Origin: Escherichia coli
GTDB lineage: Bacteria; Pseudomonadota; Gammaproteobacteria; Enterobacterales; Enterobacteriaceae
DNA: 64,000 nucleotides
Direction: 5' to 3' (one strand)
Assembly (NCBI RefSeq): GCF_024700885.2
Contig: NZ_CP117016.1
Shown here: piece after piece, positions 3,196 to 47,129 of the stretch
Numbering within the stretch: the stretch's first letter is position 1
How the letters are laid out: the number at the start of each line of letters is the position of its first letter
Position numbers and translations under genes: made by a program
The notes under the pieces: model-generated
Database searches by the model: none
What the model was told of the DNA's origin: nothing
What the model saw: the letters and a program-made list of their open reading frames with translations, nothing else

Positions 3196-4121
3196 AGATT
3201 ATTCGTGCGGGCATGTATACCACTGTGCAGGATGGCGGTCGTCACGGTTTTCGCCAGTCGGGTATCAGCCACTGCGGCGCACTGGATATGCCTGCGTTAC
3301 GCATTGCTAACCTGCTGGTGGGTAATGACGCCAATGCCCCCGCGCTGGAGATAACGCTCGGTCAGTTAACGGTAGAGTTCGAAACTGATGGTTGGTTTGC
3401 CCTGACGGGGGCAGGTTGCGAAGCGCGGCTGGATGATAATGCCGTCTGGACTGGCTGGCGCTTGCCGATGAAAGCAGGCCAGCGTTTAACGCTTAAACGC
3501 CCACAGCACGGGATGCGCAGTTATCTGGCGGTCGCGGGTGGTATTGATGTTCCGCCGGTAATGGGGTCATGCAGTACCGATCTCAAAGTGGGGATTGGCG
3601 GGCTGGAAGGCCGTTTACTGAAGGATGGTGACCGACTCCCGATGGGTAAATCGAAGCGTGATTTTATGGAAGCGCAGGGCGTTAAACAGCTGCTGTGGGG
3701 CAACCGCATTCGCGCCTTGCCGGGGCCGGAATATCATGAGTTCGATCGCGCCTCGCAGGATGCATTCTGGCGTTCGCCGTGGCAGCTTAGTCCGCAAAGT
3801 AACCGCATGGGCTATCGCTTACAGGGGCAAATTTTAAAACGCACCACCGATCGCGAACTGTTATCTCACGGTTTGTTGCCGGGTGTGGTGCAAGTGCCGC
3901 ATAACGGCCAGCCGATTGTGTTGATGAACGATGCGCAAACCACCGGTGGTTATCCGCGTATTGCCTGTATCATTGAGGCTGATATGTACCATCTGGCGCA
4001 AATTCCGCTCGGTCAGCCGATTCATTTTGTCCAGTGTTCACTGGAAGAGGCACTGAAAGCGCGGCAAGATCAACAACGTTATTTCGAACAATTAGCGTGG
4101 CGGCTGCACAATGAAAATTGA
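3189..4121 (+). CDS. pxpC: 5-oxoprolinase subunit C (YbgK), 310 aa
   Basis: Overlaps pxpB stop by 7 nt (translational coupling); length matches K-12 PxpC. Confidence 0.9.
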
Positions 4122-4845
4122 CCTGAACGCCGATCTGGGCGAAGGCTGCGCCAGCGACGCAGAGCTATTAACGCTGGTTTCCTCTGCCAATATTGCCTGT
4201 GGATTTCATGCAGGCGATGCGCAAATCATGCAGGCTTGCGTGCGTGAAGCAATAAAAAATGGTGTCGCGATTGGCGCTCACCCGAGTTTTCCCGACCGGG
4301 AAAATTTTGGTCGCAGTGCCATGCAGCTGCCGCCAGAAACCGTTTACGCCCAGACGCTGTATCAAATTGGCGCGCTGGCAGCGATTACCCGTGCGCAAGG
4401 GGGCGTAATGCGTCATGTCAAACCGCACGGCATGTTATACAACCAGGCGGCGAAAGAGGCACAACTGGCAGACGCCATCGCCAGAGCGGTATACGCTTGC
4501 GATCCGTCATTGATTCTCGTCGGGCTGGCGGGAAGCGAGCTGATTCGTGCAGGCAAGCGATATGGTCTGATAACGCGCGAGGAAGTGTTTGCCGATCGCG
4601 GTTATCAGGCTGACGGCTCGCTGGTGCCGCGAAGCCAGCCAGGCGCGTTGATTGAAAACGAAGAACAGGCGCTGGCGCAAACGTTGGAGATGGTGCAACA
4701 CGGCAGAGTCAAAAGTATCACCGGCGAATGGGCAACGGTCACGGCGCAAACGGTCTGCCTGCATGGCGATGGCGAGCACGCACTGGCATTCGCCCGCCGA
4801 CTACGCTCTACATTTGCCGAAAAGGGGATTGTTGTCGCAGCATAA
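4111..4845 (+). CDS. pxpA: 5-oxoprolinase subunit A (YbgL, LamB/YcsF family), 244 aa
   Basis: LamB/YcsF-like sequence; operon position after pxpC. Confidence 0.9.
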
Positions 4846-4880
4846 TCCCGCTTAATAAAGAATGAAAAAAGGATATCACC

Positions 4881-5672
4881 ATGCCTGAAGGCCCGGAGAT
4901 CCGCCGTGCAGCGGATAACCTGGAGGCGGCGATCAAAGGCAAACCACTAACTGATGTCTGGTTTGCCTTCCCGCAGTTAAAACCTTATCAATCACAACTT
5001 ATCGGTCAACACGTTAGCCATGTGGAAACGCGAGGTAAGGCGTTGTTAACTCATTTTTCCAACGGTTTAACGCTCTACAGCCATAATCAGCTTTACGGCG
5101 TCTGGCGCGTGGTTGAAACCGGCGAAGAGCCGCAGACCACGCGAGTATTGCGGGTAAAACTGCAAACGGCTGACAAAACCATTCTGCTTTATAGCGCCTC
5201 GGATATTGAGATGTTGACCCCGGAACAACTGACCACGCATCCGTTTTTACAACGCGTTGGCCCCGATGTGCTGGATCCGAATCTGACGCCGGAGGTGGTA
5301 AAGGAACGATTATTGTCGCCGCGCTTTCGTAACCGTCAGTTTGCTGGATTACTGCTCGATCAGGCGTTTCTGGCAGGACTTGGCAATTATTTGCGGGTGG
5401 AGATCCTCTGGCAGGTGGGGTTAACCGGCAATCATAAAGCGAAAGATCTCAGTGCGGCGCAACTGGATGCACTCGCACACGCGTTACTGGATATTCCTCG
5501 ACTTTCTTACGCTACGCGGGGGCAGGTGGATGAGAATAAACATCATGGGGCGTTGTTTCGCTTTAAGGTTTTTCATCGTGATGGCGAACCGTGTGAACGC
5601 TGTGGCAGCATCATTGAGAAAACCACGTTGTCCTCGCGCCCGTTTTACTGGTGTCCAGGCTGCCAACACTAG
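4881..5672 (+). CDS. nei: Endonuclease VIII (Fpg/Nei family DNA glycosylase), 263 aa
   Basis: N-terminal MPEGPEI motif typical of Fpg/Nei family; C-terminal zinc finger CxxC...CxxC; conserved position. Confidence 0.95.
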
Positions 5673-6715
5673 GCCGACCGCTTCGGCGCATAGGTTGAAA
5701 TAAACCGCGCAATGGCTGGCCCCGTCAGCAAAATACTGAACAGGCGCAGGGTTTGCATCGCCATAATAAGCGCCATATCGGCATTGCTCCCTGCGGCGAT
5801 GACCGCCACGGTATCAAGCCCGCCGGGGCTGGTGGCGAGGTAGGCAGTCATAAAATCAATATGCATAAACCGGGTCAGTCCCCACGCCATACCTGCACAA
5901 ATAGCCAGCAGAGCAAAAATCGACAGCAAGATTTGTGGCAGCGGGCGCAATGCCCGCAGTAAGATTTGCTTATCGAAACCAAGACCAATCCGCCAGCCAA
6001 TTGCCATATACGCCATCGCCAGCAGCCATTCCGGGAGTTCAATCGTGATGAGCTGACCAGACTGGAGCACTGCGCCCGCCAGCATCGGGATGAGCATCGT
6101 GCCGGAAGGAAGACGTAGCAAACATCCCGCCGTACCGGCAACGACCGCGAGCAAAATCGTAAGCAGGAGATTAATGCTCACTGGCGGGAACCAGACGATC
6201 TGCTGGTTAACCGCTTCAGCGTTATCGCCCAGCATCATGCGGGTGACCAGAACAGCGGCCCCCGCGACGAACAGCACTCGCAGATATTGCATAAACGCCA
6301 CCAGGCGAATATCTGCGCCGTAATCTTGCGCCATAGCGACCATTGCCGCCGCGCCGCCAGGAGAAGAACCCCAGGCACCGGTATTTCCAGGCAGTGAGCT
6401 ATAGCGCACCAGTAGCCACCCAACAATGGCGCTGGAAAGCAGCGTCACCAGTAAAATTGTAAGCACGATCGGCCAGTTGACGGCCAGCGTGGTGAGAATC
6501 GAACCAGTGAGGTTTTGCGCAATCATGCAGCCAAGAATGGCCTGGGCGGCGAGAAAAGCAGAGCGGGGAAGTTGCAGAGTAATTCCGCGCATACTAAAGA
6601 TGATCCCGGCGATCATCGGTCCAAGTAATAGCGCCGCCGGGAGATGTAATCCGAGGAAGCCAATAGAAAGGAGAAGTGAGAGCACACATAACATTCCCCA
6701 CTGCAAAACTGGCAT
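5669..6715 (-). CDS. abrB: AbrB-family membrane protein (putative regulator/transporter), 348 aa
   Basis: Hydrophobic multi-pass ORF; start placed at [10 protein letters not shown] (ORF-track start 26 codons further upstream is probably not used) to match the K-12 length. Confidence 0.85.
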
Positions 6716-6867
6716 CCTTCGCTCCCTCATTATTTTTTCTTTGGTGTATCGATACAGCATAAAGAAAGCCGGGCCAGGAAAAAATAACAGCAATCAAGGA
6801 AAAGGGGAAAATCAGCAATTTTCTGAAAGAGAGGCCCTTTACTGACTGCAAAGGGCATCATGATAAA

Positions 6868-7929
6868 TTAGTTATAGTTAATCTTAAAAAGCACCACTGT
6901 ATCGAAGGGACCCGCTTCGATGGGGGTGCCGGGAATGGACGAAAGTTCAGCCGTATAGGTTTTTTCGTAGATCAGCATATCGCTGGTGAAATCAGCATAT
7001 TCGCTGTATTTGTTGAAAGTATAGGGTGAAGAATTTTCATCCAGCAAACGTAGCTTCAGTCCATTACCAATCAGCAGTGCTTTATCCTCTTCAATCAATG
7101 TTTCTTCGGTATAAAACGAAGAGCTGACCTTAAATCCGTCGGTGCACTGGTCATTTTGTGATTTTGTCGTCTTAATACTGAATGTTTTCGACATTGTGTG
7201 GCGGCGAATATCCAGCAGGTTAAATTTACCAAAATCAATCACCTGTGTTTCTGGTGAAATAGAAAAATTGACGCTGCAATCCAGTACACGAATGTTTTCC
7301 AGACCAGTAATATGGTATTTCAGGTTTTGGGCGGTAGGGTCTTCGTTAACGCTACCGGCACCATCAAATTGCACGACGATGTAGTCGCTAAGCGTACTTT
7401 GATAATCATGCGGCGGTATTTCGCGAATCTTAACGTATAACCGCATACGAGCAAGAAAGGTTCGCGACATGTGAATATTAGCGGGGTCACCCGAGCATAT
7501 TTTGTTCTGCCAGCCCATCGCGATAATCTGCTCAGGGGTATAAATGTTAATGTTCTTACTGTCGATACACTGGTTGGTGTCGATGCGGCTTTTCCCCTGG
7601 TTGGCGTCATAATCAACGCCATTGTAAGTTACGCCGAGTTGATAATAGCGATCCTGCACCCCCGGGTAGGGGTTTACCCAGGCGTAGACATGCTCACTTT
7701 CAAAGTTGCCGTTGGTATTGTTGTCACAATAGACGGGAATTTTAATATCGTCAGATTCCCAAATCTTATCGCCGGGTTTGGCATTGCCTGGTACAGCAAA
7801 AGGTTGAATCACTTCTGATTTTTCTACCGAACCACCGGATGAACCAAAGTAGCAGTTCAGGGCAAGCGCAGACTTCAACGGCAGAAATACCAGACAGATG
7901 ACGAGCAACACTCCCTTGCCAGCACTCAT
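6868..7929 (-). CDS. ybgO: Putative fimbrial adhesin/minor subunit YbgO, about 353 aa
   Basis: Last gene of chaperone-usher operon; signal-peptide-like N-terminus; start placed at MSAGKG, a 4-nt overlap with the ybgP stop. Confidence 0.85.
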
Positions 7930-8657
7930 TTCTTCGCCTCCACTGCTTGTAAACGGCATTGTCCGCTGCAGTTGAGCGTCGTCATGCGTAACGCGCCGTA
8001 ATCATCCATATAACCGAGATAAAACTGCCTGCCGCTATAACTTCCGGTGTTTGTAATTACTGTACTAAAAGGCGCAACCATCACGGTTTTGAAGCCCGGG
8101 AGAATACCTTGCTCATTTCGTCCCAGGTAGGCGATTGTCAGGTAATAGCCGGTCGGGTTTTTTAAGTTAAGTTGATTGCCCTGCTGGCTGACTTGTAACT
8201 GTAGCTCGACTTTTTCTCCTGCTTTCTTGCGTAACGCGGACGGTCTCCAGAACACCTTGATACGACTCTGGATAGCGACTTGCAGAACGGCATGGTCGCT
8301 ATTTTTTTCCGGGGCGGGAGGAATTTCACGCATATTGTAGAAAAATAGCGTTTCGCGATCGCCCGGTAATTTTGTGGTCGAGGCTTGCTTTACTATCCGT
8401 ACCTGCGTTGTTGCTTTCGGTTCCAGACGTTGTATCGGTGGCAGGGCAACCAGAAGATCATCGCTTTTCTCCCCTTTTTCATTTTCGAGCCAGGAATAAG
8501 CGAGGTAGGGGAGTTTATCGCTACGATTATCCACTCGCAGGCTGGTGGCTTTATCATTAGCGTTAAACACAATGCGAGTGCGATCGGGTTGTAGCGCAGC
8601 GTAGCTGCACAGACTGGCAATCAACAACAAAAGGGGAAGTCCTTTCATAAATGTCAT
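7926..8657 (-). CDS. ybgP: Periplasmic fimbrial chaperone YbgP (PapD-like), 243 aa
   Basis: Size and signal peptide typical of PapD-family chaperones; sits between usher and adhesin genes. Confidence 0.88.
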
Positions 8658-8672
8658 TTTTCATTTCCTTAA

Positions 8673-11132
8673 TTAATGACAAGGTAAAATCAGGCGATTT
8701 GCGGTGTCTTCCATATGTTCAGGAAGATGGATCGAGCAACGCTGGCTATCACCCCAGACCACGGTAAATTGTTGATTTTCAGCGACTCCACTTAACCAGG
8801 CGTGTCCTTCCTCGCCAACCATCCCCACGCTAATGCCGCTATCCTCCTGGCGGATATCCGCACCGAGGGGAGGGAACTGACCGCTGGCGTTGCGAATGAT
8901 GACGTTAACGTCTTTACCGGAACGGGAAGCCAGCGATTTGTAACCTATCGCGCCTTCAATCCACGTTTCTTTGATAACGTTTTCTGCCACTGTTACGCCG
9001 TCGGGTAAATCATTCATGTTCACCGCCACGGTGGAAGGCTGATAACTGGAAATCAACGGCACCACCGCAATGCCAAAATGGTTGGTGTAGTCGAGATTGC
9101 CCTGAACCGGAATATCTGCCACGCCATCAGTACTGACCATCAGACGTGGTTCATTGGTGGAGCTGCGACGATGGAACGCCGCACCATATTGAGTTGCCGT
9201 GAAAGAACCGCTCCAGCTGCTGCTGACGGAACTGTAATCATTGGCGGCATAGGTACCAGAAATATCCCACTCACCCGCTGAACTCAGGTGCTGATAGTTA
9301 CCGCTCACCTGGGCTCCATTATCCGGACGGTCGGATTGCAGTCCGGTAGACATGCCCCAGCTATTACGTTCATCTAACGTATCATTCCACGACATGCGGT
9401 GCGTGGTGCTGTGACTACTGTTTTGCATGTCATAACCGACCCGCCCCCCGTTACCGAAGGGGAGCGAAATCGACAGGTAAATCTGATTGTCGCGATCTTT
9501 ATCTTCGTAATGGGTTGTATTGAATGACGTCGAGATCGAGATATCTCTCCAGTTACCAATATCAACATTAAAACCCGCCGTGATGTTGGCGGTCGTGGAG
9601 GCGTCTGCATTCCACCAGGTTTGATGCAGCAGGTTGGCGTACAGATTGAGGTTCAGTGGGGTAATCGGTTGCCCCACGGATAAGCTGATCGTCTGTTTTT
9701 CGTCCTGCGCATCGTTGTCGTTGTATTTGTGATCCAGATAGTTGGCGTAGCTGTGAAAATGACGATCTGAGAAGCGATAAGCGGCGAGCGAAATCGTGCT
9801 GTTAGTGGCATCCACTTGTTTGCTGTAATTAAAGCGGTAACTTAAGCCCCGCTCGTCCTGCTGAGTATCAAACTGACTACTGGCCCAGGTGACATCAAAC
9901 GACAATGCACCAAGCCAGAGCATATTTTGCCCGATACCCATTGCGGCAGAATGGTAGTCGTCACCCGAAATCAGCAGGCCGCCGTACAGTGAGGTATTTG
10001 ACAGCATCCCCCAGGAAACTTCATTGCTAAAAAAGGTTTCATTTTCAGTTTGATGAGACATAGATGTTCGCGGCTGACCGGCAGCAAGTTTATAGCGAAC
10101 CTGCCCCTGGCGCGTAAGGAAAGGCGTCGATGCTGCCGAAACCTGGAAATTGTTCACCCGACCATCTTCTTCCGTCACTTTGACATCCAACGTACCCTGG
10201 ACGGACTGATTAAGGTCATCAATGATAAACGGACCTGGTGGGACTTTTTTCTGGTAAATAACTCGCCCTGAGTGACTCACGGTGACGGTGGCGTTGGTTT
10301 GTGCAATGCCGCTGATTTGTGGGGCGTAGCCGCGTAGCTCCCACGGTAACATCCGATCGTCACTTGCCAGTGCCGCGCCGGTATAAGAAAAGCCGTCGAA
10401 AATATTGGAACTGAAATCCGTTTCACCAAGGGTTAATTTTGAACCTAATTGCGGTAATGGACGAAAAAGATAGGTGCGTGATATTTCGCCTGACTGTTCA
10501 TGGTTATCATCGCTATCGGTCTGATTCAATTGGTAATCACTGCGTAAACGCCATGCTCCCGCGTTAATTCCGGCTGTTCCATAGGCGTTCAGGTTAGTGC
10601 TGTTGCTACCATCCTGTGGGCGGTAGCTGCTGGCAAACAGGTTGTAGTCCATCAGGACGCCGGCGACACCTTCTTTCCATGTTGAGGGGGGAGTCCAGTT
10701 ATCTGAGTGCCACGCCAGCCAGGCTTGTGGAATAGTGATATTCAGTTGCTGGCTAGCCTGATCAAAAATGAAGAGAATTTCAGGCCGGGAGCTAAAATCG
10801 ACGCACTGGTTTAACCGTGGTAACGACTGACGAACTTCAGGTTTTAAACCAAATTTATCTACCAGTAAATCATTAATACACGGAATGGTTTGGTCACCGT
10901 TCTTTTTCCAGTCAATTTTTTGTCCGTTACTGATTTGGTTGTTATTCACCGCAACGCTAACAAAATATTCACCGGGAGCAATGCCCCCTTTTTCCTTTAA
11001 TAATGAAATATCAATGCGATCTCGCATCGATTTATCGAGGACATTCAGGTTGAATTCGACCGCCAATGCGGAAGGTATCGCCATGACCAGGCAGGATATA
11101 AAAGAGAGTCGATAAATATTCACGGTGTCCAT
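8673..11132 (-). CDS. ybgQ: Outer-membrane fimbrial usher YbgQ, about 819 aa
   Basis: Usher-sized ORF ending with the LILPCH-type C-terminus; start placed at MDTVNIYRLS (ORF track extends 14 codons upstream); exact start uncertain. Confidence 0.85.
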   Translation of the reverse strand: MDTVNIYRLSFISCLVMAIPSALAVEFNLNVLDKSMRDRIDISLLKEKGGIAPGEYFVSVAVNNNQISNGQKIDWKKNGDQTIPCINDLLVDKFGLKPEVRQSLPRLNQCVDFSSRPEILFIFDQASQQLNITIPQAWLAWHSDNWTPPSTWKEGVAGVLMDYNLFASSYRPQDGSNSTNLNAYGTAGINAGAWRLRSDYQLNQTDSDDNHEQSGEISRTYLFRPLPQLGSKLTLGETDFSSNIFDGFSYTGAALASDDRMLPWELRGYAPQISGIAQTNATVTVSHSGRVIYQKKVPPGPFIIDDLNQSVQGTLDVKVTEEDGRVNNFQVSAASTPFLTRQGQVRYKLAAGQPRTSMSHQTENETFFSNEVSWGMLSNTSLYGGLLISGDDYHSAAMGIGQNMLWLGALSFDVTWASSQFDTQQDERGLSYRFNYSKQVDATNSTISLAAYRFSDRHFHSYANYLDHKYNDNDAQDEKQTISLSVGQPITPLNLNLYANLLHQTWWNADASTTANITAGFNVDIGNWRDISISTSFNTTHYEDKDRDNQIYLSISLPFGNGGRVGYDMQNSSHSTTHRMSWNDTLDERNSWGMSTGLQSDRPDNGAQVSGNYQHLSSAGEWDISGTYAANDYSSVSSSWSGSFTATQYGAAFHRRSSTNEPRLMVSTDGVADIPVQGNLDYTNHFGIAVVPLISSYQPSTVAVNMNDLPDGVTVAENVIKETWIEGAIGYKSLASRSGKDVNVIIRNASGQFPPLGADIRQEDSGISVGMVGEEGHAWLSGVAENQQFTVVWGDSQRCSIHLPEHMEDTANRLILPCH

Positions 11133-11182
11133 ACCTGATAAATATTTGAAGAAAGGCGGCGATGACGCCGCCAAAGTGATAC

Positions 11183-11749
11183 TTATTTATAATCCAGTAC
11201 GTAGGTCGCATTCGCCGTAACTGCGCCTGGTGTTACGGGCGTAGCCTGATCAATTTGTTCCATCCACGCAAAGAAATTTAACGTTTGTTCGCTGGAGGTT
11301 GGTGCCAGGTCGATATCTGGAGTAGCGGTGCCTAAAACGATATTGCTTTGATCTTTATTCATTAAACGCACGCCGACACCGGTCGCTTCACCCGTGCTGG
11401 TGTTGTTGAGAATCGGATCTGCGCCGGTGGTTTTCGCTGAGCTTTCAAAGGTGACTGCAACTTTAGAAATCTTGCCGCCGGAACCGTTGTTGGAGTTTTC
11501 CAGATCGCAGTTGACTAAGCGCAGGTCGACAGCAACGGCATCGCTGTGATGCGACTGATTAATATGGCTGGTGGTCACCTGACCGAGTTCAACCTCTTTA
11601 TCAATATCATCCTGATGTATTTCACACGGTGCTTCAATAACTTCACCTTTAAAGTGAATTTCACCGGATCCTTCATCAGCCGCATAAACAGGTGCTGTGA
11701 ATAGCAGAGATATGGCCAGTGCGGCCAATGTTTTTTGTCCTTTAAACAT
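11183..11749 (-). CDS. ybgD: Fimbrial major subunit YbgD, 188 aa
   Basis: Fimbrial subunit-like ORF with signal peptide MFKGQKTLAALAISLLFTAPVYA; first gene of the operon. Confidence 0.88.
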   Translation of the reverse strand: MFKGQKTLAALAISLLFTAPVYAADEGSGEIHFKGEVIEAPCEIHQDDIDKEVELGQVTTSHINQSHHSDAVAVDLRLVNCDLENSNNGSGGKISKVAVTFESSAKTTGADPILNNTSTGEATGVGVRLMNKDQSNIVLGTATPDIDLAPTSSEQTLNFFAWMEQIDQATPVTPGAVTANATYVLDYK

Positions 11750-12074
11750 AGCTGAGTCCTTTAAATAATGAGATAGAGTGTTGCGAGGCAAGAATATATT
11801 AACTGACAGTTGAATGTATTTGGTTTTATTTAACAATATTAAAAATCTTGTTATATAAAGAATGGAATAATTGAGTGTATAAATTTATTGTTTAATGAGA
11901 TGAAAGATGGGGTGGGATGGATATGCATAATTTTCATTGGGTTAACAATGCTACCGGCAGGAAAGTATAAAAATAAACTTATCATTCTGCTCAGTATGTG
12001 ACTTGTCACATTTTTTCACCTTATTAATGGGTATTTGCATCTGGTTTAATTTTTACAATTTATTATGTTCAGCC

Positions 12075-12110
12075 ATATAAAAAAGAACCCGCTCTATTAA
12101 AGGCGGGTCC
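12075..12110 (-). terminator. Rho-independent terminator downstream of gltA
   Basis: On the minus strand a GC stem (CCCGC...GCGGG) is followed by a T-run (TTCTTTTTTAT) immediately after the gltA stop. Confidence 0.7.
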
Positions 12111-12138
12111 GGAAAGTAAACGGCTTAGCAATCAACCA

Positions 12139-13422
12139 TTAACGCTTGATATCGCTTTTAAAGTCGCGTTTTTCATATCCTGTATACAGTTGACGCGGAC
12201 GGGCAATCTTCATACCGTCACTGTGCATTTCGCTCCAGTGGGCGATCCAGCCAACGGTACGTGCCATAGCGAAGATCACGGTGAACATAGAAGACGGAAT
12301 ACCCATCGCTTTCAGGATGATACCAGAGTAGAAATCGACGTTCGGGTAGAGTTTCTTCTCGATAAAGTACGGGTCGTTCAGCGCGATGTTTTCCAGCTCC
12401 ATAGCCACTTCCAGCAGGTCATCTTTGGTACCCAGCTCTTTCAGCACTTCATGGCAGGTTTCACGCATTACGGTGGCGCGCGGGTCGTAATTTTTGTACA
12501 CGCGGTGCCCGAAGCCCATCAGGCGGAAAGAGTCATTTTTGTCTTTCGCACGACGAACAAATTCCGGAATGTGTTTAACGGAGCTGATTTCTTCCAGCAT
12601 TTTCAGCGCCGCTTCGTTAGCACCACCGTGCGCAGGTCCCCACAGTGAAGCAATACCTGCTGCGATACAGGCAAACGGGTTCGCACCCGAAGAGCCAGCG
12701 GTACGCACGGTGGAGGTAGAGGCGTTCTGTTCATGGTCAGCGTGCAGGATCAGAATACGGTCCATAGCACGTTCCAGAATCGGATTAACTTCATACGGTT
12801 CGCACGGCGTGGAGAACATCATATTCAGGAAGTTACCGGCGTAGGAGAGATCGTTGCGCGGGTAAACAAATGGCTGACCAATGGAATACTTGTAACACAT
12901 CGCGGCCATGGTCGGCATTTTCGACAGCAGGCGGAACGCGGCAATTTCACGGTGACGAGGATTGTTAACATCCAGCGAGTCGTGATAGAACGCTGCCAGC
13001 GCGCCGGTAATACCACACATGACTGCCATTGGATGCGAGTCGCGACGGAAAGCATGGAACAGACGGGTAATCTGCTCGTGGATCATGGTATGACGGGTCA
13101 CCGTAGTTTTAAATTCGTCATACTGTTCCTGAGTCGGTTTTTCACCATTCAGCAGGATGTAACAAACTTCCAGGTAGTTAGAATCGGTCGCCAGCTGATC
13201 GATCGGGAAACCGCGGTGCAGCAAAATACCTTCATCACCATCAATAAAAGTAATTTTAGATTCGCAGGATGCGGTTGAAGTGAAGCCAGGGTCAAAGGTG
13301 AACACACCTTTTGAACCGAGAGTACGGATATCAATAACATCTTGACCCAGCGTGCCTTTCAGCACATCCAGTTCAACAGCTGTGTCCCCGTTGAGGGTGA
13401 GTTTTGCTTTTGTATCAGCCAT
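12139..13422 (-). CDS. gltA: Citrate synthase, 427 aa
   Basis: Sequence [35 protein letters not shown] matches E. coli GltA; divergent from sdhCDAB. Confidence 0.97.
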
Positions 13423-14130
13423 TTAAGGTCTCCTTAGCGCCTTATTGCGTAAGACTGCCGGAACTTAAATTTGCCTTCGCACATCAACCTGGCTTTACCC
13501 GTTTGTTATTTGGCTCGCCGCTCTGTGAAAGAGGGGAAAACCTGGGTACAGAGCTCTGGGCGCTTGCAGGTAAAGGATCCATTGATGACGAATAAATGGC
13601 GAATCAAGTACTTAGCAATCCGAATTATTAAACTTGTCTACCACTAATAACTGTCCCGAATGAATTGGTCAATACTTCCACACTGTTACATAAGTTAATC
13701 TTAGGTGAAATACCGACTTCATAACTTTTACGCATTATATGCTTTTCCTGGTAATGTTTGTAACAACTTTGTTGAATGATTGTCAAATTAGATGATTAAA
13801 AATTAAATAAATGTTGTTATCGTGACCTGGATCACTGTTCAGGATAAAACCCGACAAACTATATGTAGGTTAATTGTAATGATTTTGTGAACGGCCTATA
13901 CTGCCGCCAGGTCTCCGGAACACCCTGCAATCCCGAGCCACCCAGCGTTGTAACGTGTCGTTTTCGCATCTGGAAGCAGTGTTTTGCATGACGCGCAGTT
14001 ATAGAAAGGACGCTGTCTGACCCGCAAGCAGACCGGAGGAAGGAAATCCCGACGTCTCCAGGTAACAGAAAGTTAACCTCTGTGCCCGTAGTCCCCAGGG
14101 AATAATAAGAACAGCATGTGGGCGTTATTC
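13423..14130. promoter_or_regulatory. gltA-sdhC divergent promoter/regulatory intergenic region
   Basis: About 700-bp AT-rich intergenic region between divergent gltA and sdhC; individual promoter and ArcA/CRP sites not mapped by eye. Confidence 0.6.
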
Positions 14131-14520
14131 ATGATAAGAAATGTGAAAAAACAAAGACCTGTTAATCTGGACCTACAGACCATCCGGTTCCCCATCACGG
14201 CGATAGCGTCCATTCTCCATCGCGTTTCCGGTGTGATCACCTTTGTTGCAGTGGGCATCCTGCTGTGGCTTCTGGGTACCAGCCTCTCTTCCCCTGAAGG
14301 TTTCGAGCAAGCTTCTGCGATTATGGGCAGCTTCTTCGTCAAATTTATCATGTGGGGCATCCTTACCGCTCTGGCGTATCACGTCGTCGTAGGTATTCGC
14401 CACATGATGATGGATTTTGGCTATCTGGAAGAAACATTCGAAGCGGGTAAACGCTCCGCCAAAATCTCCTTTGTTATTACTGTCGTGCTTTCACTTCTCG
14501 CAGGAGTCCTCGTATGGTAA
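14131..14520 (+). CDS. sdhC: Succinate dehydrogenase cytochrome b556 subunit, 129 aa
   Basis: Start placed at [16 protein letters not shown] to match K-12 SdhC; membrane-anchor hydrophobic profile. Confidence 0.93.
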
Positions 14521-14861
14521 GCAACGCCTCCGCATTAGGACGCAATGGCGTACATGATTTCATCCTCGTTCGCGCTACCGCTATCGTCCTGACGCTCTAC
14601 ATCATTTATATGGTCGGTTTTTTCGCTACCAGTGGCGAGCTGACATATGAAGTCTGGATCGGTTTCTTCGCCTCTGCGTTCACCAAAGTGTTCACCCTGC
14701 TGGCGCTGTTTTCTATCTTGATTCATGCCTGGATCGGCATGTGGCAGGTGTTGACCGACTACGTTAAACCGCTGGCCTTGCGCCTGATGCTGCAACTGGT
14801 GATTGTCGTTGCACTGGTGGTTTACGTGATTTATGGATTCGTTGTGGTGTGGGGTGTGTGA
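14514..14861 (+). CDS. sdhD: Succinate dehydrogenase hydrophobic membrane anchor, 115 aa
   Basis: Overlaps sdhC stop; length matches SdhD. Confidence 0.95.
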
Positions 14862-16627
14862 TGAAATTGCCAGTCAGAGAATTTGATGCAGTTGTGATTG
14901 GTGCCGGTGGCGCAGGTATGCGCGCGGCGCTGCAAATTTCCCAGAGCGGTCAGACCTGTGCGCTGCTCTCTAAAGTCTTCCCGACCCGTTCCCATACCGT
15001 TTCTGCGCAAGGCGGCATTACCGTTGCGCTGGGTAATACCCATGAAGATAACTGGGAATGGCATATGTACGATACCGTAAAAGGGTCGGACTATATCGGT
15101 GACCAGGACGCGATTGAATATATGTGTAAAACCGGGCCGGAAGCGATTCTGGAACTCGAACACATGGGCCTGCCGTTCTCGCGTCTTGATGATGGTCGTA
15201 TCTATCAACGTCCGTTTGGCGGTCAGTCGAAAAACTTCGGCGGCGAGCAGGCGGCACGCACTGCGGCGGCTGCTGACCGTACCGGTCACGCACTGTTGCA
15301 CACCCTTTATCAGCAGAACCTGAAAAACCATACAACCATTTTCTCCGAGTGGTATGCGCTGGATCTGGTGAAGAACCAGGATGGCGCAGTGGTCGGTTGT
15401 ACCGCATTGTGCATCGAAACTGGTGAAGTGGTTTATTTCAAAGCCCGCGCTACCGTGCTGGCGACTGGCGGGGCAGGGCGTATTTATCAGTCCACTACCA
15501 ACGCCCACATTAACACTGGCGACGGCGTCGGCATGGCTATCCGTGCAGGCGTACCAGTGCAGGATATGGAAATGTGGCAGTTCCACCCGACTGGTATTGC
15601 CGGTGCGGGCGTCCTGGTCACCGAAGGGTGCCGTGGTGAAGGCGGTTATCTGCTGAACAAACATGGCGAACGCTTTATGGAGCGTTATGCGCCGAACGCC
15701 AAAGACCTGGCGGGCCGTGACGTGGTGGCGCGTTCCATCATGATCGAAATCCGTGAAGGTCGCGGCTGTGATGGTCCGTGGGGGCCACACGCAAAACTGA
15801 AACTTGACCACCTGGGTAAAGAAGTTCTCGAATCCCGTCTGCCGGGTATTCTGGAACTCTCCCGTACCTTCGCTCACGTTGATCCGGTGAAAGAGCCGAT
15901 TCCGGTTATCCCAACCTGTCACTACATGATGGGCGGTATTCCGACCAAAGTGACCGGTCAGGCGCTGACGGTGAACGAGAAAGGCGAAGATGTGGTGGTT
16001 CCGGGGCTGTTTGCCGTTGGTGAAATCGCTTGTGTATCGGTACACGGCGCTAACCGTCTGGGCGGCAACTCGCTGCTGGACCTGGTGGTCTTTGGTCGTG
16101 CGGCAGGTCTGCATCTGCAAGAGTCTATCGCCGAGCAGGGCGCACTGCGCGATGCCAGCGAGTCTGATGTTGAAGCGTCTCTGGATCGTCTGAACCGCTG
16201 GAACAACAACCGTAACGGTGAAGATCCGGTGGCGATCCGTAAAGCGCTGCAAGAATGTATGCAGCATAACTTCTCGGTCTTCCGTGAAGGTGATGCGATG
16301 GCGAAAGGGCTTGAGCAGTTGAAAGTGATCCGCGAGCGTCTGAAAAATGCCCGTCTGGATGACACTTCCTGCGAGTTCAACACCCAGCGCGTTGAGTGCC
16401 TGGAACTGGATAACCTGATGGAAACGGCGTATGCAACGGCTGTTTCTGCCAACTTCCGTACCGAAAGCCGTGGCGCGCATAGCCGCTTCGACTTCCCGGA
16501 TCGTGATGATGAAAACTGGCTGTGCCACTCCCTGTATCTGCCAGAGTCGGAATCCATGACGCGCCGAAGCGTCAACATGGAACCGAAACTGCGCCCGGCA
16601 TTCCCGCCGAAGATTCGTACTTACTAA
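14861..16627 (+). CDS. sdhA: Succinate dehydrogenase flavoprotein subunit, 588 aa
   Basis: ATG at 14861 overlaps the sdhD stop (TGATG); [27 protein letters not shown]-binding N-terminus. Confidence 0.96.
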
Positions 16628-17359: not shown

Positions 17360-17559
17360 TTAAATGTTGATGCCGGGGAAATCCCCCGGCTATTCAGGAA
17401 ATCTTTAAAAACTGCCCCTGACACTAAGACAGTTTTTAAAGGTTCCTTCGCGAGCCACTACGTAGACAAGAGCTCGCAAGTGAACCCCGGCACGCACATC
17501 ACTGTGCGTGGTAGTATCCACGGCGAAGTAAGCATAAAAAAGATGCTTAAGGGATCACG

Positions 17560-21593: not shown

Positions 21594-21686
21594 TAGTTTA
21601 AGTTTCACCTGCACTGTAGACCGACGTGGATATGGTGTCGGTCTACGGTTTAAAAGATAACGATTACTGAAGGATGGACAGAACAC

Positions 21687-23822: not shown

Positions 23823-24387
23823 TGCCTTAAATGTTAACCACGGTCGAAATCTGACCGCTGGCTTGACTGCATGACCACAGCCACTGTGGATTGCCGCAAC
23901 CGACCGCAAGCCACGAATAAGAACGACGGCGAATTTCGAATCGTTACCTGATGCACTGGCTTCCCAGCGTTTGACCGTAGCGTTAAGTAAATCAACAAAA
24001 GCGATGTTCACCGCTTATCGTCAAGTCGTGCCATTTGTCAGCCAGGATCGGGTCTTTACCCCGGATATTGCAGCATCGCAAAAATTCTTAGAGGGATATG
24101 CTATAAATCAAAAATAAAATCTTTGTTGATTGTTTATCATAATATCCACAGATATGATAAATGATATCAATTTAATAATTTTCACTTAATGTGATTCCGG
24201 ATAATTCGAAAGGCGCTGTGCTTTTCGGATTATTATTATCTGATTAAGATATTTGTCACGCCAGGCTTACTGGGTTATAAATGTCAATCATGATTCTTAT
24301 AAATTATTTATTGCTGCTTTGGTTACCATTACTTCGTAATAAGTAATGTATTTTTGATGGTTTAAACTATTTTTAAGGGACGGCATT

Positions 24388-25293
24388 ATGCGAGGAAAAA
24401 TACCTAAAACGGAGCTGCTGGTGACTTTTGAGGTCGTCGCACGTCATGAAAGTTATACCAGAGCGGCAGAGGAGTTAGCGTTAACCCAAAGTGCAGTATT
24501 CAGACAAGTGAGTGCGCTGGAGGAATTTTTACATACTCCGTTATTTTCACACTCTAAAAAACGTATTTTTCTTAATGATGCAGGGAAGTATTACCTGGGG
24601 ATAGTAAAAGAAACATTAAATAAGCTGGAACGCGATACCAATACCATTATGACCTGGCAGCCTACGGTTCAGGTTATTGAACTTGCCGTGAATCCTACGT
24701 TTAGTACCCACTGGTTAATCCCAAATTTACATGAATTCACAAAGTTACATCCCGATATTATTGTTAATATTCATTCTTTAGCTAATAACGGCGATTTTCT
24801 TAATCGGGAGTACGATGCTGTCATTATGCGCGAAAATTTTTGCGCGCCCTGGGCGGAAGTAGAATATCTCTTTGAAGAGGAGATTTTGCCGGTATGCAGC
24901 GGCAGTTTGCTTGCAATGTCCGATCAAAAACTGTCAGTGGCAGAACTGCTTACAGAGTTACCACTTCTGCATCAAAGTACCCGTATTACTGGCTGGGAAG
25001 AGTGGTTTGCCTTATCTGGCGTTAGCAGTCCGCTGGTCAACAACGGACCACGTTTCGATTTGCTTTCAATGCTGATTGCCGCCGTGCGCTCGAATCTCGG
25101 CGTGGCGCTGTTACCTCGTTTCGCTATTCAACATGATTTGGATAGTGGCGATATGGTGATCCCCTGTGATGTGCCTATTCGTACCGGTAATCGTTTTATT
25201 ATGACGTGGCAGGAAGAGAAGTCTGACTCACCGCACTTGCAGCAATTTCGTGAATGGTTGCTGGCGAAATCGGTCGTACCGCAGGAGATGTAA
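24388..25293 (+). CDS. LysR-family transcriptional regulator, 301 aa
   Basis: N-terminal HTH (ELALTQSAVFRQVSALEEFL) and LysR substrate-binding-like C-terminal domain; convergent with the distal end of the methylaspartate operon. Confidence 0.85.
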   Translation: MRGKIPKTELLVTFEVVARHESYTRAAEELALTQSAVFRQVSALEEFLHTPLFSHSKKRIFLNDAGKYYLGIVKETLNKLERDTNTIMTWQPTVQVIELAVNPTFSTHWLIPNLHEFTKLHPDIIVNIHSLANNGDFLNREYDAVIMRENFCAPWAEVEYLFEEEILPVCSGSLLAMSDQKLSVAELLTELPLLHQSTRITGWEEWFALSGVSSPLVNNGPRFDLLSMLIAAVRSNLGVALLPRFAIQHDLDSGDMVIPCDVPIRTGNRFIMTWQEEKSDSPHLQQFREWLLAKSVVPQEM

Positions 25294-25326
25294 AACCTGC
25301 GCCTGGCGGGATGCCAGACGCAGTTA

Positions 25327-25929
25327 TTACCAGTCGATACCCGGCTGGGCCTGAATGCCGTTATCAAAAGCATGTTTGACGGGGCGGATTTCGCTTACCG
25401 TATCCGCCATTTTTAATATCTGACTGTGGCAACCGCGTCCGGTGACAATGACACTTTGTTGTGCCGGGCGGTTTTGCAGAGAAGCGATCACTTCTTCGGT
25501 GTCCAGATAATGGTAAGCCAGCATATAGGTCAGCTCATCAAGCACCACTAAGTCGTAACGCTTGTCAGCCAGCATCCGTTTGCTTTCCGACCAGACCTCT
25601 TTCGCCGCGTCGATATCCGCTTGCCGGTTCTGTGTCTCCCAGGTAAAACCGGTTCCCATAATATGAAACTCAACCCCCAGCGGCTGGAGAAGGTTGTATT
25701 CACCGTTGTCCCATTGCCCCTTGATGTACTGCGCAACCCCCACCGTTTTGCCATGACCCACCGCGCGCGTCACAGTACCAAACGCGGCAGTGGATTTCCC
25801 TTTGCCGTTGCCGGTGAAAACAATCAAGATCCCTTTTTTCTCTATCGCCGCCGCGACGCGCGTATCGACCTGTTCCTTCAATTTCTGCTGGCGCTGCACA
25901 TGCCGTTCAGTTGAAATTCGCGCTTCCAT
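25327..25929 (-). CDS. ATP:cob(I)alamin adenosyltransferase (CobA/BtuR family paralog), 200 aa
   Basis: Strong resemblance to E. coli BtuR as I recall it (IIVFTGNGKGKTTAAFG P-loop, VVLDELTY, VITGRG, SELRPVKHAF motifs); last gene of the minus-strand operon. Confidence 0.85.
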   Translation of the reverse strand: MEARISTERHVQRQQKLKEQVDTRVAAAIEKKGILIVFTGNGKGKSTAAFGTVTRAVGHGKTVGVAQYIKGQWDNGEYNLLQPLGVEFHIMGTGFTWETQNRQADIDAAKEVWSESKRMLADKRYDLVVLDELTYMLAYHYLDTEEVIASLQNRPAQQSVIVTGRGCHSQILKMADTVSEIRPVKHAFDNGIQAQPGIDW

Positions 25930-25938
25930 TCATTTTCC

Positions 25939-27591
25939 TTAATGTCCCGCAGGGCAACTGGCGCAGCGGTGTTGCTGCTCAAACTGACTAAAGAAATTAT
26001 TGCCTTTATCATCTACCAGGATGAATGCGGGTAAATTTTCCACTTCCATCATCCACACCGCTTCCATACCCAGCTCCGGGTATTCCAGGCAACGCAGACT
26101 TTTGACATATTCTTGCGCCAGTAACGCAGCTGCACCGCCAATACTTCCCAGATTGAAGCCGCCATGTTTGTGACAGGCATCGGTGACCTGCTGGCTGCGG
26201 TTACCTTTCGATAACATCACCAGACTGCCGCCAGCCGCCTGGAAGGTATCGACATAACCGTCCATTCGTCCACCCGTGGTTGGACCCAGTGAACCGCAGG
26301 CCATGTTCTCCGGTGTTTTCGCCGGGCCAGCGTAATAGACAATATGATGCTTCAGGTAATCCGGCATCGATTCGCCGCTATCCAGCCGCGCTTTTATTTT
26401 GGCATGGGCGATATCGCGCGCCACTACGATGGGACCACTTAACGACACGCGGGTGCCTACCGGTAATCTGGCGAGATCCTGCATCACGTCACGCAACGGA
26501 CGGTTTAGATCCAGCTGTACATGTTGCGCGTGATTTTCTTCCCGCAGTGAGGCTGGAATATATTGCCCCGGATTGTGTTCGAGTTTTTCCAGCCAGATAC
26601 CGTGTTTGTTAATTTTTGCTTTGATATTGCGATCGGCAGAACAGGAGAGCGCCATAGCTATCGGGCAAGAGCCACCGTGACGCGGCAGACGAATGACGCG
26701 AATATCATGAGCGAAATATTTACCCCCAAATTGCGCACCAATACCAAATTGCTGACTGGCGTTGAGCAACGCTTTTTCCAACTCAATATCACGGAATGCT
26801 TGTCCCTGCTCGTTTCCGCTGGTGGGCAAATTGTCGTAATATTTCGTTGAGGCCAGCTTGGCAACTTTTAAGGTTTGATCGGCTGAAAGCCCTCCGACGA
26901 CAAAGGCGATGTGATAAGGCGGGCAGGCAGCGGTGCCCAGCGATTTCATTTTTTCGATTAAAAATGCGGTCAGTTTTTCTGGTTGCAATAGGGATTTTGT
27001 TTCCTGATAAAGCGCGGCTTTATTGGCAGAGCCCCCCCCTTTATTAATACAGAGAAAATGGTACTCATCACCAGCGACGGCGCTGATATCAATCTGCGCC
27101 GGTAGATTGGTTTGCGTATTGACTTCGGTATACATATCCAGTGGCGCATTTTGTGAAAAGCGCAGATTATTTTCCTGAAAAGTGGTGTAAATGCCTTTGC
27201 TTAAGGCTTCGGCGTCGTTACCTCCGGTCCATATCTGTTGCCCTTTACTGGCAACAATAGTTGCGGTGCCGGTATCCTGACAGTTGGGTAATACCCCTTT
27301 TGCTGAGACTTCAGCATTACGTAATAACTGCAACGCAACGTATTTATCATTACTGCTGGCCTGCGGATCGTTAAGAATGCTGGCGACCTGTTGCAAATGA
27401 GCGGAACGTAAGAAAAAAGAGGCTTCATAAAATGCCTGCCGGGCAAGCAGCGTTAATGCTTCAGGAGCGATTTTTATCACTTCTTCGCCGTCTAATTCCG
27501 TTACTGTAATATGTTGATCGCTAATTAATGTATATTCTGTACCGTCTTTATTTTGTAGATACGGTTCTTGCCAGATAAATGGTTTGGACAT
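25939..27591 (-). CDS. fumD: Class I (FumA/FumB-like) fumarate hydratase family protein, probable mesaconase, 550 aa
   Basis: FumA-sized single polypeptide of the Fe-S hydro-lyase family; location in the glutamate mutase/methylaspartase cluster corresponds to the mesaconase/fumarase FumD described for E. coli O157:H7 (from memory). Confidence 0.8.
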
Positions 27592-27698
27592 ATTTCACTT
27601 TTCACCTTAAACGTTAGTGTTACTTAATTGCCGTCTAACTTCATGATCCGGCTTATAAAAATGCGTAGTCATTGGCTTCTGATTGCTTAAGATCCCCC

Positions 27699-28979
27699 TC
27701 AGGGCAGAGCAACGTTCGATTCATTGGGTTTTAATGCTTTACCCCGACAACCCTCGCCGAAATGTTCGCCTTCCCACCGACTCACCAACGCAGCGCCCAT
27801 TGCGTTGCTCATGACGTTTGTCGCGGAACGCCCCATATCAAGGAACGGATCAACGCCCATCAGCAAGATCAGCCCCGCTTCCGGAATATTGAACTGGTTG
27901 AGCGTGGCGGCGATAACCACCATTGAGGCGCGTGGTACGCCAGCCATTCCTTTCGAGGTCAACATCAGGATCAACAGCATGGTGATTTGCTCACCGATGG
28001 ATAAATGGATATTGCAGGCCTGGGCGATGAAAACTGTGGCGAAGGAGCAGTAGGCCATTGATCCAACGAGATTAAATGAGTAGCCAATGGGTAAGACAAA
28101 GCTGGCAATTTTGGGGGAAACGCCAAATTGCTCCAGTTTTTCAAGCGTTCCCGGAAAAGCAGCTTCAGAACTGGATGTGGTAAATGCCAGCAGGGCGGGT
28201 TCCGAAAGGGCACGGGTCAGGCGTCTGATGCAGGGGCCGACATAAACGATGGCCAGACCGATAAGCAGCACCCAAAGTAACAACATGGTGAAATAAAATT
28301 CACCCATAAAGATCCCGGCGCTCACCATAACTGCCAGTCCTCGTTCAGCAATCAATGCTGAAATAGCGGCGAATACGGTCAGGGGAGCGAAGAGCATGAC
28401 GTAGCCAGTGAGCTTTAACATGGCATGTGCCAGCGAATCTAAGGCGTGAACGATGGCGCTGCCTTTCTCACCAATCGCCGTCAGGCTACAGCCGAGGAAA
28501 ATTGAGAACACCACGATTTGCAAAATTTCATTGTGCGCCATGGCATCGACAATGCTGGTGGGGAAAGCATGCGAAATAAATACTTTTAGCGTAAAGGGTT
28601 CTGACGCGACCACTCCGGTGGTTTCGGCACCGTGTGCAACAAAATTAATTCCTGTGCCTGGCATGAAGAAATTTACCGTTATCAAGCCTAAGGCAATTGA
28701 CAGCAATGAGGCGCAAATAAATAAAAAGAGTGTTTTAGAAAAAATACGACCAAGGGCTTTGGCATCGCCCATTTTAGCAATACCTACCACCAGGGTAGAG
28801 ACCACTAACGGAGCGATAATCATTTTTATCAGTCGTAAGAAAATCGTCGTGAATATCGATATTTCTTGCGCATAGAGTTTTGCTGTTTCCGGTGAAGCAG
28901 TGTTATTGATCACTACGCCGATAATCATTCCAAGTACCAGCGCCAAAAGAATCATCGTGGTTAAACTTATTTTCTTCAT
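27699..28979 (-). CDS. Dicarboxylate/amino acid:cation symporter (DAACS, GltP/DctA-like) family transporter, about 426 aa
   Basis: Multi-pass hydrophobic ORF with the family-typical N-terminus; start placed at MKKISL (ATG at 28979), preceded by GGAGGA 7 nt upstream; the ORF-track start at 29000 is a GTG. Confidence 0.8.
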   Translation of the reverse strand: MKKISLTTMILLALVLGMIIGVVINNTASPETAKLYAQEISIFTTIFLRLIKMIIAPLVVSTLVVGIAKMGDAKALGRIFSKTLFLFICASLLSIALGLITVNFFMPGTGINFVAHGAETTGVVASEPFTLKVFISHAFPTSIVDAMAHNEILQIVVFSIFLGCSLTAIGEKGSAIVHALDSLAHAMLKLTGYVMLFAPLTVFAAISALIAERGLAVMVSAGIFMGEFYFTMLLLWVLLIGLAIVYVGPCIRRLTRALSEPALLAFTTSSSEAAFPGTLEKLEQFGVSPKIASFVLPIGYSFNLVGSMAYCSFATVFIAQACNIHLSIGEQITMLLILMLTSKGMAGVPRASMVVIAATLNQFNIPEAGLILLMGVDPFLDMGRSATNVMSNAMGAALVSRWEGEHFGEGCRGKALKPNESNVALP

Positions 28980-29139
28980 TTTTTCCTCCATCAGGTGCAC
29001 GGCGATAAATCAGAATCAGGAGAAGTAGATGCCCGAATAAAAATTCAGGCATCTACCTGCTATTACAACCTTACAAATAGCTGAAGTGTTGAACTGCAAT
29101 AAGTGACGGGATGTCAGTTGGCTAAAAGTGTTCGGATTT

Positions 29140-29457
29140 TTACAAATCGAAACTCATATTTAATAAAGGTGCATGTTGCTGTGCACCATAGACATCATTG
29201 TCACCTACATTCCCGGAGATAATATCTCGTGGCATGACGATTTTTACTGCGTTAGAAGGATCAAACCAGACAATACGATGAATAAAGTCAGGTTCAACAT
29301 GATATAAGCGCGCGATCAGTTCTGGGGTTAATTGCCCTGATGATTTAACTCGCTCATAGTTTTCTTTGGTTTTAAATAAAATATCTAAAACCAGTTCGTA
29401 AGGTCCGGCATTTTTCGAACGAATGACTTGCGCCAGTGAGACAATTGACTGTTTCAT
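29140..29457 (-). CDS. DUF4387-like small protein, 105 aa
   Basis: Small soluble ORF whose start overlaps the stop of the upstream DUF1446-like gene by 4 nt; family assignment from recollection of the DUF1446/DUF4387 pair. Confidence 0.6.
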   Translation of the reverse strand: MKQSIVSLAQVIRSKNAGPYELVLDILFKTKENYERVKSSGQLTPELIARLYHVEPDFIHRIVWFDPSNAVKIVMPRDIISGNVGDNDVYGAQQHAPLLNMSFDL

Positions 29458-30824: not shown

Positions 30825-30827
30825 TTG

Positions 30828-33514: not shown

Positions 33515-33749
33515 TGATTGCAGCCTTAATTGTTATAGGGTTAAGCATTGAATACTGGTGCGCGCGGCGGCCAGTGGATCGACTCTGGCGACGTTTGCCA
33601 GCAGTGGTAATAGCCCCCGGGAATCGCGGTAATATTCAAATTCGGTCGGTAAGAGAATGCGTTTACCGTCGTCGTTTAACTCGCGGTATTTCAACCAGTG
33701 ATGCATATCGAACTGACTGGCACGCGAGAGCCATCCGCCGGAACCAACG

Positions 33750-33757
33750 ACTTTACG
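33750..33757. repeat. Target-site duplication (left copy) ACTTTACG
   Basis: 8-bp direct repeat immediately flanking the IS26 left inverted repeat. Confidence 0.85.
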
Positions 33758-34577: not shown

Positions 34578-34585
34578 ACTTTACG
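34578..34585. repeat. Target-site duplication (right copy) ACTTTACG
   Basis: 8-bp direct repeat immediately flanking the IS26 right inverted repeat. Confidence 0.85.
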
Positions 34586-35748: not shown

Positions 35749-36198
35749 TCAGATTGCCTCTTCAAGAATGCGAGTATCAACGTCATGACGTTGGTTGATA
35801 TCGTGGGCCATCAGCTGACAAACATCTTCTAAGTCATGACTTGGGGAAAAGACGCGATCAAATCCCATCTCTTTGAACTTGGTTTCCACGTCAGCGAAGT
35901 CATGTTTTCCGACCACCAGGTTACCGCCCACATAGAGCAGGATGTTACCCAGCCCACGCTCGATGCAGCGTTCGCGCATGCCCAGACAATCGATATCGCC
36001 ATGCCCATAGATAGAGGAGACGACAATCGCGTCAGCACCAGTTTCAATGGCAGCATCAATATATTCGTCCTGGCTGACCATTACGCCCAGATTAATAACT
36101 CTGAAGTCATGGTTGCTAAAAACGCGGTCCAGAACTTTATTGCCTACTGCATGGCAGTCCGCGCCAATAACGCCAATCACAAGTGTTGCTTTCTTCAT
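35749..36198 (-). CDS. glmS: Glutamate mutase sigma (B12-binding, S) subunit, about 149 aa
   Basis: [24 protein letters not shown] contains the DxHxxG cobalamin-binding signature; start at ATG 36198 preceded by AGGA; stop overlaps the glmL start (ATGA). Confidence 0.88.

Positions 36199-46583: not shown

Positions 46584-47129
<546 letters not shown>

Follow-up and report, generated by a model that had tools for sequence, protein, structure and literature searches.

The ybgDQPO fimbrial operon in an Escherichia coli chromosome: intactness, start codon of the usher gene and allele classes

We analyzed a window of 64,000 nucleotides of Escherichia coli DNA (contig NZ_CP117016.1) and conclude with high confidence that the minus strand between positions 6868 and 11749 is the intact and well-known ybgDQPO operon, which encodes the Ybg fimbriae, at its usual place between gltA and abrB. 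The operon is already known and annotated and its presence here is ordinary. We base its identity on annotated RefSeq genomes that are 100% identical to the window and on flanks like those of K-12. The 5.7-kb interval from 6500 to 12200 is matched at 100% in at least 20 complete E. coli genomes, and a segment of E. coli strain 1190 is the same as positions 3500-15200 of the window at all 11,701 bases; in that strain the RefSeq/PGAP limits of the four genes coincide with the open reading frames of the window (Table 1). The operon is flanked by abrB and nei on one side and by gltA and sdhCDAB on the other, an arrangement shared with K-12 MG1655, and the locus, the four genes, their order and the DNA at the start of the usher gene are as in K-12 ybgOPQD (b0716-b0719).

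The Ybg type of fimbriae is delimited by the phylogeny of the usher together with the locus (Wurpel 2013). The operon of the window is chromosomal and lies between abrB and gltA, and its usher is orthologous to K-12 YbgQ as judged by 93.7% amino-acid identity from end to end. The other products are 96% (YbgO), 88.5% (YbgP) and 78.2% (YbgD) identical to their K-12 counterparts. The initial annotation had described a complete four-gene ybgD-ybgQ-ybgP-ybgO chaperone-usher operon, and the coordinates, the K-12 alignments and the sets of Pfam domains all agree with this. We looked in particular for internal stops and frameshifts, which that annotation had named as the defects that would count against it, and end-to-end alignment of ybgD, ybgQ, ybgP and ybgO to K-12 revealed none in any of the four genes.

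Table 1. Coordinates and features of the ybg operon and its surroundings in the window
Feature	Position	Strand	Details
gltA	12139-13422		operon flank, as in K-12
gltA-ybgD intergenic region	11750..12078	-	AT-rich; presumed ybg promoter/silencing region
ybgD	11183-11749	-	major fimbrial subunit, 188 aa; ORF and PGAP coordinates, strain 1190 ("fimbrial protein")
hairpin after ybgD	11155..11172	-	GGCGGCG-tcat-CGCCGCC then TTTCTTC; 11 nt 3' of the ybgD stop
ybgQ	8673-11132	-	outer-membrane usher, 819 aa from ATG; ORF and PGAP
ybgP	7926-8657	-	periplasmic PapD-like chaperone, 243 aa; ORF and PGAP
ybgO	6868-7929	-	two-domain tip adhesin, 353 aa; ORF and PGAP start
terminator-like hairpin after ybgO	6834..6856	-	GCCCTTTGCAGTCAGTAAAGGGC then CTCTCTTTCA; 11 nt past the stop; consensus match only
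abrB	5669-6715		operon flank, as in K-12
YbgD signal peptide cleavage			VYA/ADEG; heuristic check
YbgQ signal peptide cleavage			ALA/VEFN from both starts; heuristic check
YbgP signal peptide cleavage			SYA/ALQPDRTR; heuristic check
YbgO signal peptide cleavage			ALA/LNCY; heuristic check

The products carry the domains that characterize a chaperone-usher system, namely a three-domain usher, a two-domain chaperone and at least one subunit with a pilin fold (YbgD), with Sec signal peptides throughout. YbgD matches the Pfam family Fimbrial (PF00419, 3.5e-30), YbgQ matches PapC_N (PF13954, 7.6e-33), Usher (PF00577, 2e-187) and PapC_C (PF13953, 1.1e-13), and YbgP matches PapD_N (PF00345, 4.3e-34) and PapD_C (PF02753, 2.2e-13). 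The C-terminal part of YbgO (218-353) reaches 24.1 bits with Pfam Fimbrial, slightly under the cut-off of 25.6. YbgO is a two-domain tip adhesin with a receptor-binding domain at residues 24-217, the structure of which has already been solved, and a pilin domain at about 218-353, because residues 24-217 match PDB 9rx0/9rww. These entries, named 'Fimbrial protein', cover residues 24-217/222 with four differences over 24-217. The only PDB relatives of the receptor-binding domain are 9rx0, 9rww, 9rwu and 9rwe, and it is unrelated in sequence to PapG.

The Ybg system is predicted to be of the Pap-like (PapC/PapD) type. YbgQ aligns with PapC over its full length at 524 bits, against 271-276 bits for FimD, and YbgP scores 166 bits (1e-47) with PapD and about 96 bits with FimC. 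The usher may belong to the Pap-like (pi) clade of Nuccio and Baumler, to judge from the higher bit score with PapC than with FimD. The P pilus system (PapC, PapD) of uropathogenic E. coli is the nearest relative of the Ybg usher and chaperone with a solved structure, and the mature N-termini align (VEFN... for the usher; A-x-x-x-DRTR for the chaperone). In contrast to the P pilus, Ybg consists of a major subunit and an adhesin only, and the 4.9 kb of the operon contains no equivalent of the adaptor, terminator and minor pilins (PapH/E/F/K) or of the regulators PapB/PapI. The best NCBIfam profiles are those of the StdB, StfC and SteB ushers for YbgQ (636, 633 and 532 bits) and of the StdC, StfD and SteC chaperones for YbgP (171-180 bits). 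The Std, Stf and Ste fimbriae of Salmonella have a similarly compact operon layout, but every profile score is far short of its equivalog cut-off (636 against 1289 in one case), which excludes orthology of Ybg with any of these systems.

We assessed the signal peptides with a simple heuristic check of n-, h- and c-regions and of the (-3,-1) positions for AXA-type sites, and predicted one for each product. Three alignments agree with the predicted cleavage sites: residue 1 of mature PapC aligns with V22 of YbgQ (in the numbering from GTG), which is the V of VEFN, residue 2 of mature PapD aligns with residue 22 of YbgP, and the crystallised YbgO construct (9rx0) starts at L24. The initial annotation had likewise assigned signal peptides to all four products. 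Its 'coupled starts' hold for one junction out of three: ybgP and ybgO overlap by ATGA (in GAAATGAGT), whereas ybgQ and ybgP lie 15 nt apart, with a Shine-Dalgarno (SD) sequence AAGGA of its own for ybgP, and ybgD is separated from ybgQ by 50 nt (to the ATG) or 59 nt (to the GTG) with a hairpin in between. The first gene, ybgD, starts at ATG 11749 with the SD sequence AAAGGA 6 nt upstream. Its longest open reading frame would begin at TTG 11836, a start that we rejected given the SD sequence, the canonical signal peptide and the K-12 and PGAP annotation of ATG 11749. For ybgO we likewise discarded ATG 7959, with its weak SD sequence (-3.2 kcal/mol) and a negatively charged n-region, in favour of ATG 7929, which has the strong SD sequence GGAGG (-9.7 kcal/mol).

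From what is known of the family, all four products would be exported by Sec and their signal peptides removed, the YbgP chaperone would cap the YbgD and YbgO subunits in the periplasm and the YbgQ usher would form a pore in the outer membrane. The adhesin YbgO would be loaded first at the usher, and YbgD would then be polymerised beneath it by donor-strand exchange. Efficient assembly of YbgQ requires TAM (PMC11014939). On expression the operon reportedly gives rise to fimbriae and adhesion (PMC3559732 and PMC6033998, both citing Korea 2010), including adherence to bladder cells (PMC6033998, citing Korea 2010).

The initial annotation had given a length of 815 aa for K-12 YbgQ, which is indeed that of the curated K-12 annotation with its GTG start, and had offered two readings of the 819 aa in the window, an N-terminal region slightly different from K-12 or an imprecise figure for K-12; neither holds. 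The two annotated lengths are what speaks for an N-terminus truly different in length, a reading that direct alignment refutes and that we regard as next to impossible. The start-region DNA common to K-12 and the window is tatcaggtATGGACACCGTGaat, and the two sequences are identical over the stretch that begins 28 nt before the ATG and ends 26 nt past the GTG (-28 to +35; ...aaatatttatcaggtATGGACACCGTGaatatttatcgactc...). Of the four 'extra' residues, three (MDT) stem from the choice of start codon, which is ATG in PGAP and in the initial annotation and GTG in the curated K-12 entry. The fourth is a real one-codon indel located 20 codons from the C-terminus of YbgQ (GDSQRCS in the window, GE-QSCI in K-12) and is the sole real change in length. 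This codon is present in the window, in 042, in O55:H7 CB9615 and in a Vietnamese isolate and is deleted in K-12, which is the odd allele. The apparent N-terminal difference is an annotation choice of three codons added to a deletion of one C-terminal codon in K-12. RefSeq carries 815-aa (GTG) and 819-aa (ATG) forms of YbgQ over the same start DNA, an inconsistency that this comparison tidies up, and comparing protein lengths with K-12 can mislead.

Which of the two codons initiates ybgQ is a separate question. The three alternative starts listed by the initial annotation (TTG 11174, ATG 11132 and GTG 11123) all exist, together with an internal ATG at 11084. Checked for signal peptides one start at a time, as had been proposed, ATG 11132 and GTG 11123 both pass with the same cleavage site. 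TTG 11174 would give a leader of 38 residues, lies within a hairpin stem and is devoid of an SD sequence, and in O55 the equivalent frame is closed by an in-frame TAA/TAG; ATG 11084 leaves no signal peptide. We rejected these last two candidates. The start chosen in the initial annotation (MDTV at 11132) matches PGAP and yields the 819 aa given there. The evidence is nonetheless slightly in favour of GTG 11123, which we consider probably the true initiation codon and which gives an usher of 816 aa in the window.

Four weak lines of evidence point to the GTG, namely the SD spacing, the charge of the n-region, the StdB profile together with other gene calls, and the start of a distant ortholog. 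The sole SD-like element, AGGU, is 8-9 nt from the GTG and directly abuts the ATG (spacing 0); neither candidate has a good SD energy (-3.4 and -3.9 kcal/mol). The n-region has a net charge of +1 from the GTG and of 0 from the ATG, since the extra Asp cancels the positive charge of the signal peptide. Position 2 of the StdB profile falls on residue 5 of the ATG form. Among homologs of the N-terminal 200 aa of the usher, where the hits are mostly fragments, several independently called genes begin with MNIYR. Lastly, we identified an ortholog (L010) that is about 53-66% identical, with the order subunit-usher-chaperone-adhesin as in ybg. Its usher gene has an ATG exactly at the position equivalent to the GTG, a signal peptide of 21 residues and an in-frame stop four codons upstream. 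The SD sequence AGGTAAGGA of this ortholog stands where E. coli has AGGTATGGA, and from this alignment the E. coli ATG appears to sit within the ancestral SD sequence.

A start at ATG 11132 (MDTV..., 819 aa), with the K-12 GTG annotation three codons short, appears to us rather unlikely in the face of these four lines, even if several observations speak for it. PGAP annotates the 2460-nt form in 1190, 042, CB9615 and 2018-05-2CC, and ATG is an intrinsically stronger initiator than GTG. The ATG also occurs in every one of the five E. coli allele classes examined, but the GTG is just as invariant in them, so that conservation does not decide between the two. The two intervening codons show one synonymous change (GAC/GAT), which would count for the ATG, and one non-synonymous change between classes, and are not discriminating. 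Whether ATG 11132 or the favoured GTG 11123 is used, the mature usher (VEFNLNVLDK...) is the same, because the N-terminal difference is removed by signal peptidase.

The interval between ybgD and ybgQ contains a hairpin of seven G-C pairs, detected by a scan for terminator-like structures. The region 11115-11195 folds with -21.3 kcal/mol (z = -3.05). The position of the hairpin is kept in five E. coli allele classes (including K-12, 042, O55 and L011) with different loops, and the O55 class carries one compensatory change from a G:C to a U:A pair. The 53%-identical ortholog L010 has a hairpin at the same position with an unrelated stem (GUGGCC/GGCCAC). In the P pilus operon the major subunit gene papA also has a hairpin 3' of it. 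By analogy with papA, the Ybg hairpin is likely an intra-operon attenuator or a stabiliser of the mRNA 3' end, and this conserved element probably increases the amount of major subunit relative to usher. Its T-run is weak (TTTCTTC) and it may therefore stabilise the mRNA rather than terminate transcription. The hairpin after ybgO likely marks the end of the operon, as its terminator-like sequence suggests. An Rfam scan of 6500-12300 returned no match.

Transcription would begin upstream of ybgD in an AT-rich region (31% GC) that is reportedly silenced by H-NS in laboratory culture. The GC content drops to 30.7% in 11700-12099 from 48-53% in neighbouring windows, the identity to K-12 is 61% in 11855-12053, and a single weak sigma-70-like match lies at 12009-11981. 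For 11750-12078, a role as promoter and the binding of H-NS are presumed from the literature (PMC3559732, citing Korea 2010), and the GC content of about 31% in this 330-bp region fits the silencing by H-NS that is reported for the cryptic fimbriae of K-12.

Comparison of this locus among E. coli genomes revealed at least four deeply diverged allele classes of the ybg operon, all under purifying selection. The window and K-12 belong to different classes, and ybgQ and ybgP of the window have one additional codon each relative to K-12. Along the locus, identity to K-12 is 99-100% in gltA, 61-77% in the promoter region and ybgD, and 80-97% in the remaining operon genes as well as in abrB and nei. 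With four alleles compared, dS in ybgD is 1.2-1.8 between the window, K-12 and O55 classes (1.56 between the window and K-12), and against the O55 class all four genes reach dS values of 1.4-2.1. The same four alleles give a dS of 0.05-0.12 in gltA, and the ybg values are roughly 15-30 times higher. YbgQ and YbgO of a fourth class (L011) share about 81-83% identity with each of the other classes, and its YbgD shares 68-84%. YbgD varies in the middle and is conserved at the N-terminal donor-strand region and at the C-terminal strand. Major pilins with antigenic variation, FimA among them, typically show such conserved termini and a variable middle, and deep allele divergence is a familiar feature of fimA and other surface antigens.

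The commonest class in ybgD (at least 90% identity) is that of the window, found in about 2829 of the 5426 complete genomes; about 1331 fall in the K-12 and O55 classes combined, and the K-12 class is a minority. In total ybgD and the 5' end of the usher gene are present in 4188 of these genomes and about 23% are without that segment. In B2 strains such as Nissle 1917 only about 3 kb is left for abrB, a fimbrial remnant and gltA, and in FAM21845 copies of IS1 stand in place of ybgD. These counts agree with the picture drawn by Wurpel et al. 2013 (PMC3559732) of a "core-associated" chaperone-usher type with a fixed locus that is often disrupted, and which is intact mainly in commensal and diarrhoeagenic strains.

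Such losses raise the question of whether the operon is a silent relic heading for decay, with its intactness in the window being incidental. The genomes that lack the segment, the scar left in strains of the Nissle 1917 type and the removal of ybgD by IS1 would fit this reading, as would the description of the K-12 operon as cryptic (PMC3559732) and the ybgO pseudogene of S. flexneri (PMC6854044). We nevertheless hold it to be very improbable. Between the deep classes dN/dS is 0.04-0.14 in all four ybg genes despite saturated synonymous divergence, which indicates that function has been maintained, and all four genes are intact in each of the four classes examined. In STEC isolates, moreover, the operon was transcribed and showed differential expression (PMC6033998), and BolA overexpression induces ybgD (PMC4337573). 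The pattern of alleles and of dN/dS argues that the operon is kept by selection and is not decaying, and it hints that a fimbria described as 'cryptic' is under selection in the wild.

A pattern scan of species-representative genomes returned only three loci. Escherichia sp. E1V33, the representative of a separate species, carries the O55 class at 97-99% protein identity. Ancient intact classes, one of them shared with E1V33, might tentatively be ascribed to long-term balancing or frequency-dependent selection, by immune or phage pressure, or to repeated replacement across species, an explanation that we put forward as a possibility on the doubtful side. If it were true, the ybg fimbria would have to be expressed in nature. 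We found no paper describing such allele classes for ybg. The deep classes also call for caution in read mapping and GWAS that use K-12 as the reference at ybg.

Comparison of the ybg operon and its promoter (window 5000-12450) with the corresponding regions of K-12, O55:H7 (CB9615), 042, L011 and L013 separated at least four deep allele classes, L011 standing for the fourth. Synonymous divergence among the classes reaches a dS of 1.2 to 2.1, compared with 0.05 to 0.12 for gltA, and dN/dS lies between 0.04 and 0.14. One of the classes is common to E. coli and Escherichia sp. E1V33, the representative of a separate species. The divergence of the window from K-12 starts in the 3' end of gltA (around 12450) and runs on through abrB and nei.

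In true length the usher differs only by the indel of a single codon in the C-terminal region of ybgQ (K-12 position around 749,785), this codon being present in the other classes and missing from K-12. About 10 nt away, at K-12 position 749,777, lies a ybgQ 'high-impact frameshift' listed in a 2025 STEC GWAS (PMC12547504). This call may be spurious and stem from the use of K-12 as mapping reference for a divergent allele class.

Two sorts of natural loss were found at the ybg locus. In E. coli FAM21845, ybgD and the 5' end of the usher gene are replaced by two IS1 copies, and in genomes of the B2 type (e.g. Nissle 1917) an abrB-remnant-gltA arrangement of about 3 kb is without ybgD, ybgQ and ybgP. 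A 3.2-kb contig (JAIJJM010000367.1) of a MAG labelled Collinsella sp. codes for YbgD and YbgQ 100% identical to those of K-12; it almost certainly represents contaminating E. coli DNA in the bin.

Between sucD/sdhX and cydA, the site of mngR-mngA-mngB in K-12, the window carries about 14.8 kb without K-12 counterpart. The annotation of strain 1190, an E. coli genome identical to the window over 3500-15200, identifies this island as a methylaspartate-pathway cluster; the island is also known from O157:H7. Its methylaspartate mutase accessory gene, glmL, is interrupted by an 820-bp IS26 with terminal inverted repeats of 14 bp (GGCACTGTTGCAAA), flanked by an 8-bp target duplication (ACTTTACG). 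This IS26 is not in strain 1190, which is otherwise 99.95% identical to the window, indicating that the window belongs to a closely related genome rather than to that of strain 1190.

Features of the window
Feature	Coordinates	Basis or remark
One-codon ybgQ indel	8730-8745	
sdhB-sucA intergenic stretch	17360-17391	not aligning with K-12
sucB-sucC intergenic stretch	21624-21637	not aligning with K-12
Methylaspartate island	23826-38622	
Glutamate mutase glmS, glmL, subunit E; methylaspartate ammonia-lyase; AtuA-family protein; DUF4387 protein; dicarboxylate symporter; class I fumarate hydratase; cobO; LysR regulator; two hypothetical proteins	within 23826-38622	strain 1190 annotation
IS26	33758-34577	in glmL
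IS26 transposase ORF	33803-34525	240 aa, DDE_Tnp_IS240
CpoB/ybgF thermometer element	47030-47168	Rfam scan
Seven tRNAs, two RtT elements	48095-48993	Rfam scan

The seven-tRNA array is the counterpart of K-12 lysT-valT-lysW-valZ-lysY-lysZ-lysQ; its spacing is slightly unlike that of K-12. At the two short intergenic stretches the K-12 gaps are longer (about 130 nt for sdhB-sucA and about 195 nt for sucB-sucC), probably reflecting variation in REP-element content.
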